Part shown: positions 275 through 45,858 of the stretch, piece by piece
Numbering within the stretch: position 1 is the first letter of the stretch
Layout of the letters: every line of letters starts with the position of its first letter
Origin: Candidatus Latescibacterota bacterium
Lineage (GTDB): Bacteria; Latescibacterota; UBA2968; UBA8231
Length of the DNA: 64,000 nucleotides
Direction: 5' to 3'
Assembly (NCBI GenBank): GCA_965197905.1
Contig: CBDAOB010000004.1
Span: 1,568,001-1,632,000 of the forward strand
The notes under the pieces: model-generated
The model's database searches: none
The model's input: only the letters and a program-made list of their open reading frames with translations
What the model was told of the DNA's origin: nothing
Made by a program: the position numbers and the translations under genes

Positions 275-1125
275 ATGAATCCGACGATAAAGAAACTGTC
301 GCCGCACATTGCGGCCGAAGTGTTCGGGGTCGACTTGCGCCATCCCATTGGAGCGGAAACCGCTGAGTTGGTGCGGGACGCGCTCTACGAACACGCCGTT
401 CTCCTCTTCCGGGATCAGGAGATTACCGACGATCAGCACGTCGCCTTCAGCGAGATCTTCGGCGCCCTCGAAATGACCTCGCCCACCGATCCGATCGGCG
501 ACGGGGGGCCGGTGGGTGTTATTTCCAACCTGGATCAAAAGGGAGATATCATCCCGTCGGAAGATCCGCGGGTGCTCTACCTCGTTGGCAACAGCTTGTG
601 GCATTCGGACGGATCGTTTAAGAAGGTTCCGCTGCGCGCTTCGCTGCTGCTGGCCAAGGTGAAGGGGGCAATACCGAATTCGCCAGCCTCCGAGCCCCTT
701 ACGAGGCCTTGTCCGTCGAAAAACAAACAACCCTGGAAGATTTGGTGGCGGTGCACAGTCTGGCCTATTCCAGGGAAAAGATCGCTCCCAACCTGGTAAG
801 CGATGAATGGAAGAAGGAGATCCCACCGACCCCTCAGGTGATGGTGCGCACCATCCCTGAAACCGGTAAGAAAGCGCTGCTCGTCGGCTCCTACACTACT
901 CACATCGTCGGCTGGCCCGAAGAGGAAGGCAAAGCACTGCTGAAGGAACTGTATGAGTGGTGTACCGAGCCCCAGTTTGTCTACAACCACCAATGGCGGG
1001 CCCACGATCTGTTGGTGTATGACAATCGTCTCTGCTTGCATCGGGTTCGGCCGTGGGATATGGATCGCTACAAGAGGATTCTCCATCGCACCACGATTCT
1101 TGGCGATGGACCAACGGTGCCATGA
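275..1125 (+). pseudogene. TauD/TfdA-family 2-oxoglutarate/Fe(II) dioxygenase, frameshifted by a small deletion at ~660
   Basis: WHSDGSF (HxD) in ORF 275; after 660 the frame shifts to EGGNTEFASLR...YDNRLCLHR (ORF 709-1125); the usual 'VPP' before EGG is missing. Confidence 0.85.
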
Positions 1126-1177: not shown

Positions 1178-1902
1178 ATGAGGACCTATCCGCGTTACAG
1201 AGTGGCAGCAGCCCATATGGCGCCGGTCTTTCTGGACCTTGAGGCGACCGTCGACAAGACTTGCTCGGTGATCCGCGAGGCCGCCGAGAATGGCGCCCAG
1301 CTGGTTGTGTTTCCAGAAACCTAGAAACTGGTGTGGGCTGCGGGAGGTAGGTCGAAAGATGCACCTCTTCGCCCTGCGCTAACATGGTATACCGCGCCAG
1401 CGACATTGTGGACCTTGCCCTCGAAGGAATGGACGCCGGCGCGGAGCAGAATCGCCCGCTCCAGGTCGTCTGGACCGGAGCTGGCGGCCGTCGCCGAGGC
1501 GGCGCGACAGAGCGAGATCTTCGTTTCCCTCCAACGTCCTGATCGATGACCGCGGCGTGATTCGCTGCCATCACCGCAAGATCATGCCTGGATGGCCCAG
1601 CCAAAGAGCGCCTTGCCGTCTGCGGCCCGGAAGCTGAGCGAATACTGGAGAACAGCCCCCGGGGCATCTCGGTGGTCATCGGACCTGACGGCAACCCGGT
1701 GAGTGAGATTCTCAATGACGAGGAGGGGCTGCTTTATGCGGATATCGATCTCGCCCTGGGTGTCGAACCGAAGCAGATCCATGACGTCGTCGGGGGGTAC
1801 AACCGCTTCGACATCTTCGAGCTCAAGGTGAATCGGTCGGCGAATCGACCCATCTCCTTTGATCCGTCGCCGGCTCACGACGATAGACCGGACGGGTCCT
1901 GA
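1178..1902 (+). pseudogene. Nitrilase (carbon-nitrogen hydrolase), scrambled and partly deleted
   Basis: [20 protein letters not shown]...LVVFPET start, HHRKIMP, KLVWAAG, C-terminal EEGLLYADIDL...HDVVGGYNRFDIF; two internal pieces lie on the minus strand. Confidence 0.88.
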
Positions 1903-43297: not shown

Positions 43298-44080
43298 TTA
43301 TCCGGGTGAGCAGGCTGTGGGATTCTGGACACAGTCGGCCTCCTCGATGCGGCGTCCATCCTGCCAGATCTCTTGCCGCGTTTTATGGCCATGCTCATCC
43401 CACCAACTCCACACTCCGCGTTCGATGCCGTTCCAGTAGGTGCGTTCATACTGCATGGTGCCATCCTCACGATACCACGCCCAGGCTCCGTCCCATTTGC
43501 CCTTGCGGAAGTTGCCCTCTTCTTTTTTTTGCCCGTTTTCGTAGTACCAGATCCACAGCCCAACCTCGAGGCCCTCCCTGTAGGCCCCTTCCCGCTCCTT
43601 GTTACCGTTTTCGAAATAATAGATGGAGAAATCACCAGCGGTGGCGAAGTGGGTCTCGCTGCGCATGGTGCCGTCAGCATAGTAGGTATTCTGCTGCAGC
43701 ATCGCCCCGGATTCCCAGACCTCGAAACTTATCATAAGATCGCCGGTTTCGTCGTAGTACCTCCAATCGCCGGTCTTCTGGTTGCGGAGAAACGCACCCG
43801 CTTCGCGCTGGTTGCCGTCGGCCCAGAAACTGCGATAGAACCCGTGCATGATGCGCCGGGATCCATCGAGGTAGTACTGGTACTCCTCGACCACGATGCC
43901 ATCGTCGTTTGACCGTGCGAACAGTTCGATCGGTCCAGCGGGCTGTTCGGGCCGGGCCCCCTCGGGCACGCTGACGCCGCCATCCTCGATCCCGCTGCTC
44001 GGTCCCAGAGGGGTGGTTCCTTCCTCTGACCCGCATGCAATAAGAACTAATCCGCAGAAAAGAACACAGGTCCATTTCAT
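43298..44080 (-). CDS. MORN-variant (YwqK-like) repeat lipoprotein, copy 2
   Basis: Lipobox LIAC; repeated YY.NG.K..EG...G...G.W units. Confidence 0.85.
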   Translation of the reverse strand: MKWTCVLFCGLVLIACGSEEGTTPLGPSSGIEDGGVSVPEGARPEQPAGPIELFARSNDDGIVVEEYQYYLDGSRRIMHGFYRSFWADGNQREAGAFLRNQKTGDWRYYDETGDLMISFEVWESGAMLQQNTYYADGTMRSETHFATAGDFSIYYFENGNKEREGAYREGLEVGLWIWYYENGQKKEEGNFRKGKWDGAWAWYREDGTMQYERTYWNGIERGVWSWWDEHGHKTRQEIWQDGRRIEEADCVQNPTACSPG

Positions 44081-44106
44081 GATCCGAACCTCCGCTGGGA
44101 ACATTT

Positions 44107-44922
44107 TCATCCGTGGATTCCGGTAAACTCGCGGTACTTTTCGACCTCGCTACAGGCCTCGGGATAATGGGCACATTCGAACTGCTCGATGCGGCGGCCG
44201 TTCTCCCAAACCTCTTGCTTGACCTTGTTCCCCTCTTCGTCCCACCAACTCCACACTCCACGCTCAATGCCGTTTGCGTACACCCTCTGATACTGCATGG
44301 TGCCGTTCTCTCGATACCATGCCCAGACACCGTCCCACTTCCCGTCGACGAAGGTCCCTTCCTCTTTGATGTTTCCGTTTTCGTAGTACCAGGTCCACAA
44401 GCCGATTTCGAATCCGTTCTTGTAAGCGCCTTCACGTTCTTTGTTGCCGTTCTCGTAGAAGTAGGTGGTCACATCACCGAGCTCGGTGAAGGCGGTCTCG
44501 CTGCGCATGTTGCCGTTGGGATAGTAGGTCATTTGCTCCTGGAGAGCGCCTCCGTCCCAAACCTCGGCGCTGATCACACCTTCGCCGGTTTCGTCGTAGT
44601 AGGTCCACATATGTGTCTTGGCGCCGTGGGTAAATGCGCCCGTCTCGCGGCGGTTGCCATCGTCCCAGTAGCGGCGATAATCCCCGTGCATTATGCGCTC
44701 GGCGCCGGACAGGTAGTATTGGTACTGCTCCACCACCAATCCCGCGGCATTCGACCGGCTAAACTGTTCGATGGGGCCTGCAGGCTGTTCGGGTTGGGCG
44801 CTTTCAGGTATTGCGACATCCCCGGCTTCGACACCGCTGCCCGGTCCCAGAGGAGAGCCGTCTTCAGACGAACTGCAGCCAAACAGAATCAGACTCGAAA
44901 GTAGGTAGTTGCGTATTCTCAT
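44107..44922 (-). CDS. MORN-variant (YwqK-like) repeat lipoprotein, copy 1
   Basis: Lipobox LFGC; same repeats; GAGGTG RBS. Confidence 0.85.
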   Translation of the reverse strand: MRIRNYLLSSLILFGCSSSEDGSPLGPGSGVEAGDVAIPESAQPEQPAGPIEQFSRSNAAGLVVEQYQYYLSGAERIMHGDYRRYWDDGNRRETGAFTHGAKTHMWTYYDETGEGVISAEVWDGGALQEQMTYYPNGNMRSETAFTELGDVTTYFYENGNKEREGAYKNGFEIGLWTWYYENGNIKEEGTFVDGKWDGVWAWYRENGTMQYQRVYANGIERGVWSWWDEEGNKVKQEVWENGRRIEQFECAHYPEACSEVEKYREFTGIHG

Positions 44923-45032: not shown

Positions 45033-45843
45033 TTAAGGCATCCGTGAATTCAGGCGTTTGATAGCACTTATTTTCGGATCGGCGAAGCCGTAGTCCAGCA
45101 GCAGCGGATGGGGCCATAGGCTTGACCCGAGATAGCTCGATAAATCAAAAGTCCGGTCGTAGATCAGAATCACCAACGGAGCGGTGACCATGACCTCTTT
45201 GCTCGCGTGTGGCTCCCGGGCACGCTCGGGGTCTGGCGTTGGCCGCCGCCGCCATTCAACAGCGAGACGATCAACTACGTGGCTCAGCTGGGTCTGATTC
45301 AACGCGTAGGTGTAGGCAGTCACCCCATGGCCGAATCCGACCGTATCTCCGTGCGCATCAACGGTTAGCAGCCCAATCAGGAGGAGCCAGGAGGAAAACA
45401 GACCGACATAAAGTACCCTATGTCGCGTGATGGCCTCCACGGAACAGTAGAGCGTCAACAGGTAGAAAAGACTCATCACCGATTCGGTCGCCGCTTCGAT
45501 GCCCCATTTTCAGAACGCGTTGCGGTTGAACCCCAACTACACCGATGCCAGTGAAACTGGCGAGAAGGTGGACGCCGATGTTGGCGAGACGAAATCCCGC
45601 CGGGTCGGGACCACCCAAAGCGTAGTTGAGCGCCAGACTGAGCCGAATCAGAGGGCGACTGCTGAGCGGGAGTTCGGGGCCGAGGGTCCACCCGCTCGGA
45701 GGCCAAAGCTGACGTAGAGACAGGTTGTCGAGGATCAGGATTTGATCGTCGAACACAAACGGATTGTGGACGCTGTTGGCGTACACCAGGGCGCACAGCA
45801 GGGTCAGCCAGAGGGCGTCGGCCCGCAGGAGAACGGAGAGCAT
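45033..45843 (-). pseudogene. TMTC/DUF1736-like GT-C membrane + TPR protein, scrambled and mostly deleted
   Basis: YANS..PFVFDD, RPL...SLALNY, TESVMSLFYLL, SKEVMVTAP..YD, WPHPL.LDY on the minus strand in non-canonical order; NSETINYVAQ and a TPR piece on the plus strand. Confidence 0.8.
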
Positions 45844-45858
45844 TGCCCGCGATCGGCG

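Follow-up and report, generated by a model that had tools for sequence, protein, structure and literature searches.

The window analysed here is a stretch of 64,000 nucleotides, positions 1,568,001–1,632,000 of contig C4 of genome G000, whose 6.69-Mb assembly consists of five contigs and is 91% complete. Its nitrilase locus belongs to a gene order (dipeptidase, TauD, nitrilase, pirin) that is common to G000 and two genomes of the same genus, G001 and G002. In these two relatives the nitrilase orthologues are intact (337–342 amino acids), and intact orthologues (336–342 amino acids) clear the Pfam cut-off for CN_hydrolase (PF00795). Upstream of the nitrilase, the TauD-family dioxygenase gene is a pseudogene (275–1125, plus strand) with a 10-bp frameshifting deletion near position 661.

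The nitrilase remnant was mapped by tblastn and blastn of the intact G001 and G002 orthologues against the window, with the nucleotides of the reference gene as coordinates. The map bears out the original prediction of seven fragments in the order A-D-E-F-B-C-G, with E and F inverted and each piece occurring once; boundaries agree within 1–3 bp. Piece A (1178–1323, plus strand) holds reference nucleotides 1–146, that is codons 1–48 with the catalytic Glu motif FPE, and its junction with D makes a TAG stop at 1322–1324. It is 100% identical to the first 48 residues of the nitrilase P0001, which then runs collinearly into the lost segment. Piece D (1323–1346, plus; 24 bp, nucleotides 416–439, codons about 139–146) has moved upstream. 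Piece E (about 1346 to 1400 or 1402, minus; about 56 bp, nucleotides about 516–571, codons 173–191) is inverted, and piece F (1401–1469, minus; 69 bp, nucleotides 614–682, codons about 205–228) is inverted separately from it. Base 1470 belongs to neither F nor B; it was added without a template, as 1 nt or, should the parental Asp codon have ended in C, as one of 2 nt. Piece B (1471–1531, plus; about 61 bp, nucleotides about 240–300, codons about 80–100) has moved downstream and is joined across a 46-bp loss to piece C (1531–1588, plus; 58 bp, nucleotides 347–404, codons about 116–135), which carries the catalytic Lys motif HRK. Piece G (1587–1902, plus) extends from nucleotide 696 to the end, codons about 232 to stop. 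The minus-strand peptides do align to nitrilases, as had been anticipated, with 90% in the alignment of E to an orthologue (E-value 4e-13) and 65–86% in the alignments of F (3e-13 to G001).

Between A and G, 549 bp were replaced by 263 bp, and the 286 bp lost fall into segments of about 95, 46, 11, 77, 38 and 13 bp that alternate with the five retained ones. The six junctions lie within 266 bp, no piece is duplicated, and the derivative can be walked along one unbroken path from A to G. The 77-bp loss takes out the catalytic-Cys motif (LICGE segment), whose absence had been predicted. Lost segments had no significant match across the assembly (four of four tested, best E-value 0.12), the Cys segment included, whereas retained pieces of like size used as a control scored 1e-11 to 1e-13. 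The Glu-Lys-Cys triad, intact in the orthologues, is thus absent from any single frame: the Glu and Lys motifs of the CN_hydrolase family survive in the separate pieces A and C. With the Cys segment gone and a frame that stops at codon 48, this locus cannot yield an enzyme. It is a dead accessory nitrilase gene without function and, on the favoured reading, a scar left by repair and no functioning element.

Point mutation, simple deletion and insertion elements are generally regarded as the sources of bacterial pseudogenes. Here, E and F are inverted yet keep their order; a single inversion would have placed F before E, and therefore no single inversion accounts for both. At least four reversals are needed, together with a loss at each of the six junctions, which rules out ordinary point-mutation decay in agreement with the original prediction. 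If orientation is ignored, the order D-E-F-B-C is a rotation of the original one, an outcome of 5 of 120 orders by random shuffle. Programmed gene scrambling of the ciliate type keeps every piece, together with pointer repeats that allow the gene to be reassembled. We rejected this explanation because the lost 286 bp are not elsewhere in the 91% complete assembly and the junctions carry no repeats.

By sequence comparison the nitrilase gene is dispensable, because relatives lose it in other ways, the neighbouring tauD is frameshifted, and of 75 other genomes in the family no more than 4 gave close orthologues, all with open frames. The relative P0012 is without about 130 internal codons; it starts in another frame of the 5' end of the gene and picks up again near codon 148, a pattern that implies a simple deletion within the gene. 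The nitrilase of P0001 is frameshifted after its collinear stretch, which could be a sequencing error in that record. Genome-wide, G000 has 23 matches to PF00795, an unusually large nitrilase-superfamily set that may explain why the shattered copy could be spared; no second intact copy of this nitrilase was found in the assembly. We obtained no near-identical intact DNA allele, the best metagenome match having 69% and the best genome-collection match 68% protein identity. Of the 163 conserved residues in the pieces, just 5 depart from those of four relatives, and the pseudogene is therefore young. The shuffled pieces show no excess of substitutions, with changes at 2 of their 64 conserved residues and at 3 of 99 in the flanks.

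Junctions and independent sequence data

Perfect overlaps at the nitrilase junctions are short: 1 bp at A|D and at D|E, 0–2 bp at E|F, 1–2 bp at B|C and 2 bp at C|G, with the 1–2 nt insertion at F|B. These lengths rest on relatives at 75–93% identity, except where contigs from public sequencing runs fix the end of C at 1588 (run X1), the start of G at 1587 (run X3) and the start of F (a loose end in X3). Random joins would be expected to overlap by 0 bp in 55%, by 1 bp in 29% and by 2 bp in 11% of cases (0–2 bp in 94%). The nitrilase overlaps are thus short but slightly richer in 1–2 bp than chance, five of the six junctions having a possible 1–2 bp against an expected 55% blunt. The CGGG microhomology originally proposed for D|E is not supported. 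It would require a parental Tyr-Leu-Pro, whereas P0012, the closest relative with the E segment (93% identical over G), has Tyr-Pro-Pro; like G002 and P0002 it reads STYPP, so that E stops at base one of the first of these Pro codons, which leaves a perfect overlap of 1 bp. No repeats were found at the junctions, and inspection of the cuts by eye for a shared restriction-like motif gave CCWGG at two cut ends only.

Six public runs contain the stretch, four of them (X1–X4) with 87–97% of the sampled words and two (X5 and X6) with a share of 0.21. Contigs, not raw reads, of X1–X4, which represent two samples and two studies, were compared with the window over the nitrilase locus and the upstream tauD. 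Among the records listed they show no differences from the nitrilase locus. In X1, records covering 942–1402 (depth 14.5) and 1373–1781 (depth 14.3) match it without differences, at a flanking depth of 13–15. At A|D, D|E, F|B, B|C and C|G these records reach at least 31 letters to either side, and at E|F 28 letters to the left, just under the 31-letter rule, so that X1 covers all six junctions. A|D is also bridged by X2, X3 and X4, and B|C and C|G by X2 and X3; at D|E and F|B the overlaps in X2–X4 amount to 29–30 letters. The 10-bp tauD deletion is spanned without gaps in X1, X2 and X4, on alleles that carry different SNPs.

Traces of an intact order are also present in the runs at low depth. 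X1 contains a C-to-D join with 11 letters between (depth 2.7), and X3 contains an F-to-G joint between opposite strands (depth 2.9), which we read as an intact join. A loose end of X3 behind 1469 continues into the intact reading before F, and its translation matches P0012. These pieces probably come from a sister strain, because minor contigs with up to 8% differences lie near the locus.

An artefact of assembly, polishing or whole-genome amplification would have to be present in both samples, one of which may be the source of the window while the other comes from another study; the evidence here consists of contigs at the nitrilase locus. The junctions are identical in the runs of both samples and both studies, at flank depth in X1, and a chimera from assembly or amplification at this locus is therefore very unlikely. 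The original prediction had allowed for such a chimera, and the arrangement came through this check unchanged. For the second scrambled gene of the window, a TPR gene described below, a chimeric frame (45421–45843) that spans three junctions is also recorded on another contig, 275,379 bp long. A further four frames bearing junctions or frameshifts (a second TPR frame and the IS1, piece-A and tauD frames) occur on two contigs apiece, compared with one for the EF-Tu control, although the second assembly behind these extra contigs may derive from the same sample. We consider an artefactual origin to have a minimal probability.

Scrambled loci elsewhere in the genome and in a congener

A cross-genome scan covered 2.8 Mb (42%) of G002 with 2,361 frames, of which 1,996 matched G000. 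Among the genes compared, 1,957 were collinear, 33 lacked a refined match and six were flagged. Four of the six flags correspond to three multi-piece loci, 3 among the 1,996 genes compared. These are the nitrilase, a PMT_2/TPR gene and an IS1-family transposase. The original prediction had missed this recurrence of the pattern, including a case 44 kb further along the same window.

This second case is the TPR gene at 45033–45850, in which 2,160 bp have been reduced to about 820 bp in eight pieces, two of them inverted and one from 1 kb downstream. Its 5' piece (45550–45850, minus strand) holds reference nucleotides 3–303 of the gene, which encodes a PMT_2/TPR protein of 719 amino acids in G002. 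Piece f (45488–45549, plus; 62 bp, nucleotides 1307–1368) is inverted and has moved about 1 kb. It is followed by b and d (45288–45487, minus; 50 bp, nucleotides 452–501, and 151 bp, nucleotides 645–795) and by the inverted piece a (45213–45288, plus; nucleotides 356–448 with an internal 17-bp loss). Pieces c and e and the 3' end occupy 45033–45206 on the minus strand (c 61 bp, nucleotides 568–628; e about 70 bp, nucleotides about 796–865; 3' end from nucleotide 2126 to stop). Junction overlaps are about 0–1 bp, and a|c holds about six unassigned bases. At least five reversals are required, and the order is not a rotation of the original. Directly downstream (43298–44922) lie two tandem paralogous lipoprotein-like genes with repeated short motifs that look MORN-like by eye.

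The IS1-family transposase (G000 C5:1,726,156–1,726,899) has three inverted pieces, of which two adjacent ones are inverted separately, like E and F. Three of its junctions have possible overlaps of 2–6 bp, judged by eye as there is no close intact copy. A paralogue-based scan of G000 (1,279 frame-poor regions, 1.58 Mb, 810 refined) revealed a fourth scrambled remnant at C5:445,921–446,314, with four pieces, two of them inverted, an internal stop and several intact paralogues in the genome. Two of the four G000 loci are 44 kb apart, which may reflect chance or one damage episode. Across 21 pieces the median size is 66 bp, with 14 at 44–82 bp; this mode is partly a detection limit, because pieces below about 45 bp are hard to align.

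The congener carries comparable scars. The paralogue-based scan of G002 (558 regions, 533 refined) yielded one multi-piece locus near 4.128 Mb (C1:4,127,006–4,128,416) and three loci with one inverted piece (4,471,597–4,472,012, 5,064,060–5,064,367 and 5,377,170–5,378,931), the inverted piece being 74–125 bp long; the overlap is 1 bp where readable, in two of these scars. All scar counts are lower bounds, as genes without a relative of at least 50% identity and pieces shorter than about 45 bp are invisible to the scans. When 115 gaps between syntenic anchors were scanned at the DNA level, the nitrilase, the TPR gene and a single inversion came up. In the opposite direction, 2,325 G000 frames searched against 2.8 Mb of G002 gave five flags, none of them a new multi-piece locus. 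Other nitrilases showed no scrambling at any of 97 loci (94 collinear and three uninformative), in a protein-pattern search that is biased to intact genes and in which many loci are cut by contig ends. Several scan flags were rejected: one at C3:1.186 Mb represents adjacent copies of a repeated element, others are tandem paralogues and repeat proteins, and for an IS1595 flag on C3 the scar proved to be in G002, not in G000.

Self-comparison of G000 gave 67 clusters, mostly dispersed repeats, and at least two scars in which a deletion is accompanied by an inverted end. The latter affect repeated elements at C5:1,092,141–1,092,377 (1 nt between the pieces) and C4:518,013–518,240 (3-bp overlap), and are possibly the simplest form of the same scar. 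Many related repeats of 60–100 bp recur every approximately 0.7–1.5 kb at C2:5,000–36,000, C3:299,000–363,000 and C1:188,000–190,000, and between them lie at least ten near-identical copies of an element of approximately 750 bp. These spaced repeats may resemble the attC sites of a large integron cassette array.

Gradual decay, in which several independent small inversions and deletions piled up in a pseudogene over time, would fit the scars with a single inverted piece in both G000 and G002, the relaxed selection on the nitrilase gene and the internal stop of the fourth locus. Against it, the nitrilase would need at least four nested inversions within 550 bp and the TPR gene five; the flanks are unrearranged and few conserved residues have changed; the pattern is confined to the three loci among the 1,996 compared genes; and no partial intermediate is seen among the contigs listed from the four runs. 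We therefore give gradual decay a slim chance of being right.

Breakage, copying and end-joining

The original prediction had offered local fragmentation with end-joining or serial template switching, and the two make different predictions. Copying would lead to overlaps and unrelated landing sites, whereas breakage would use each base once and allow both sides of a cut to be recovered. In the nitrilase, TPR and IS1 loci no base is used twice beyond the junction overlaps, for which the chance under independent copying is 0.075 (nitrilase), 0.22 and 0.005. Near-reciprocal cut ends are seen in the TPR gene, where about 0–4 bp are lost at d|e, 2–3 bp at a|b and 16 bp at c|d, and in the nitrilase, where C|D lost 11 bp and F|G 13 bp. 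Of the seven TPR gaps, three do not exceed 16 bp (P = 0.01 given no overlap); the same test is not significant for the nitrilase (0.46) or the IS1 locus (0.13). The copying simulations assume uniform independent placement, and piece sizes were read by hand. For the nitrilase taken alone, both statistics against copying (0.075 and 0.46) are weak. The 23 joins of the four loci, tallied by hand, comprise 8 of deletion type, 2 of duplication type, 6 tail-tail and 7 head-head; with so few joins, equal frequencies are not rejected (P = 0.31).

In serial template switching of the FoSTeS/MMBIR type, a fork that had stalled or broken would take short copies, of about 60 nt each, from templates close by on one strand or the other before resuming at G. 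The tracts are indeed short and local, most nitrilase junctions allow 1–2 bp of pairing, and at D|E an imperfect match of 4–5 of 6 is possible, depending on the parental Pro codon. The untemplated base at F|B, the missing duplications and the reciprocal TPR ends speak against it. In addition, template switches in E. coli show microhomologies of 4–15 bp (PMC4888836), whereas no nitrilase or TPR overlap exceeds 2 bp and there is no gain of sequence. The possible 2–6 bp overlaps at the IS1 locus constitute the main result against end-joining and may fit microhomology-driven repair better. On balance, we regard template switching as rather unlikely for these loci, and of the two mechanisms first offered, fragmentation followed by end-joining is the better supported.

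G000 possesses the corresponding machinery. On contig C5 a Ku gene (307-residue frame, PF02735 E-value 4e-45) adjoins a LigD gene (771-residue frame, TIGR02778 over the cut-off) with four Pfam domains that include polymerase, phosphoesterase and ligase domains; both frames are open. Ku was found in 7 of 25 genomes searched, among them G002. Joining without Ku, or short-patch double illegitimate recombination of the kind termed SPDIR, would agree with the slight excess of 1–2 bp overlaps, with the 3 to about 100 bp size of SPDIR microindels (10.1101/2023.11.22.568220) and with the absence of a Ku match in G001, which is 89% complete; the scar scans covered G000 and G002. The open Ku and LigD frames count against it, and SPDIR as far as described there integrates one strand at extended microhomologies, whereas here five pieces are chained, all from the deleted interval. 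We hold this alternative to be quite improbable.

The lack of overlaps in three loci, the reciprocal TPR ends, the join types and the Ku-LigD genes therefore favour re-ligation through non-homologous end-joining (NHEJ) over its rivals, and local multiple breakage followed by Ku-LigD end-joining is in our assessment the probable origin of these scars, killing dispensable genes. That there was a single event, that DNA was physically broken and that Ku-LigD did the joining are all inferred, and the involvement of Ku-LigD is a correlation. In the proposed mechanism, one event would break about 550 bp of the nitrilase at six or more places. About half of the DNA would be lost as whole pieces of roughly 40–95 bp, with a few bases of end trimming, and the five surviving duplex pieces of 24–69 bp would be ligated back into the gap in arbitrary order and orientation. 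Ku would hold the ends while LigD trims, fills and seals them. The cell would survive because the gene is dispensable, and the allele would be inherited; the same process would have struck at least three other dispensable genes in G000.

As the breaking agent, we would consider, in order of preference, a nuclease working outward from a single double-strand break whose products are then recaptured, clustered damage by chemicals or radiation, and a shredding defence nuclease such as Cas3. G000 contains four PD-(D/E)XK_1 matches and a Cas3, none of them tied to the scars. It has no match to PF00808, looked for as a histone-fold protein that could explain the 60-bp size, no Argonaute match (PF02171) and no match to a canonical RecB over the cut-off. 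The GC skew is too weak to place the replication terminus.

Relation to known systems

The closest counterparts are bacterial NHEJ scars. In a study on Streptomyces ambofaciens (PMC5869714), microhomology of 1–6 nt is described for half of the cases, along with single bases added without a template and the capture of fragments of 42 and 83 bp of local origin; three scars have one captured fragment each, of 30–83 bp, and two of the three come from near the break. For Sinorhizobium meliloti, a supplied cassette was captured by NHEJ at an engineered break, and the same 2018 study states that NHEJ-driven rearrangement in prokaryotes had previously been suggested but not demonstrated (PMC6379672). 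The scars of these two studies share with ours a deletion at the break, microhomology of zero to a few bp, untemplated single bases, capture of short fragments in either orientation, and Ku plus LigD. They differ in that single fragments (two tandem cassettes in two S. meliloti clones) were captured at engineered I-SceI breaks, whereas here five to seven pieces of the broken gene itself form a shuffled chain at several loci of natural genomes. A full-text literature search, with most subscription papers outside its coverage, returned only single-fragment capture; none of the results reported that bacterial genomes undergo natural scrambling into several pieces below the kilobase scale. Multi-piece scars could be present in the junction figures in the supplements of PMC5869714 and PMC6379672.

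Measured against the criteria of Korbel and Campbell for chromothripsis, as given in PMC6503150, the loci show clustered breakpoints, alternation of retained and lost segments (haploid states 1 and 0), no duplications, four join types, a walkable derivative and little or no microhomology. The criteria on heterozygosity and haplotype do not apply to a haploid bacterium. In contrast to chromothripsis, the loci span 0.5–2 kb rather than a chromosome, with pieces of tens of bases, 6–8 breakpoints per locus and neither micronucleus nor mitosis. FoSTeS/MMBIR has in common with the loci several short local tracts of mixed orientation in one event, but the duplications and longer microhomology expected in E. 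coli (PMC4888836) are features that neither the nitrilase nor the TPR locus displays. SPDIR, described for Acinetobacter baylyi, likewise places short intragenomic segments of up to about 100 bp without long homology, but as one ectopic strand per event and not as a chain of pieces from a deleted interval (10.1101/2023.11.22.568220). On this comparison the nitrilase locus would work like chromothripsis at one-thousandth of its scale without being a member of that class, and would best be filed as a multi-piece variant of bacterial NHEJ scarring.

The loci look like natural, inherited multi-piece NHEJ products that recur within a genome and a genus, with the check in an independent sample made for the nitrilase. 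More tentatively, and a little short of what we would call probable, bacteria with Ku-LigD may have a recurrent process that breaks DNA into 60–70 bp pieces over 0.5–2 kb and re-ligates several of them, shuffled, in one step, its scars accumulating unnoticed among pseudogenes (at least four in 6.7 Mb). Such scrambled loci can be real and are not to be discarded as chimeras. Their signature is easily searched, which makes the mark of NHEJ on natural bacterial genome evolution testable across public genomes; the same search addresses whether chromothripsis-like repair needs eukaryotic cell biology. If a recurrent Ku-LigD process is at work, it would amount to chromothripsis in bacteria on the kilobase scale, with a nuclease or protein-protected DNA setting a characteristic piece size, and its scars could be used as a genomic archive of earlier break repair in uncultured microbes. 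It would also be a one-step source of new chimeric reading frames; G000 contains junction-crossing frames of 141, 147 and 107 codons.
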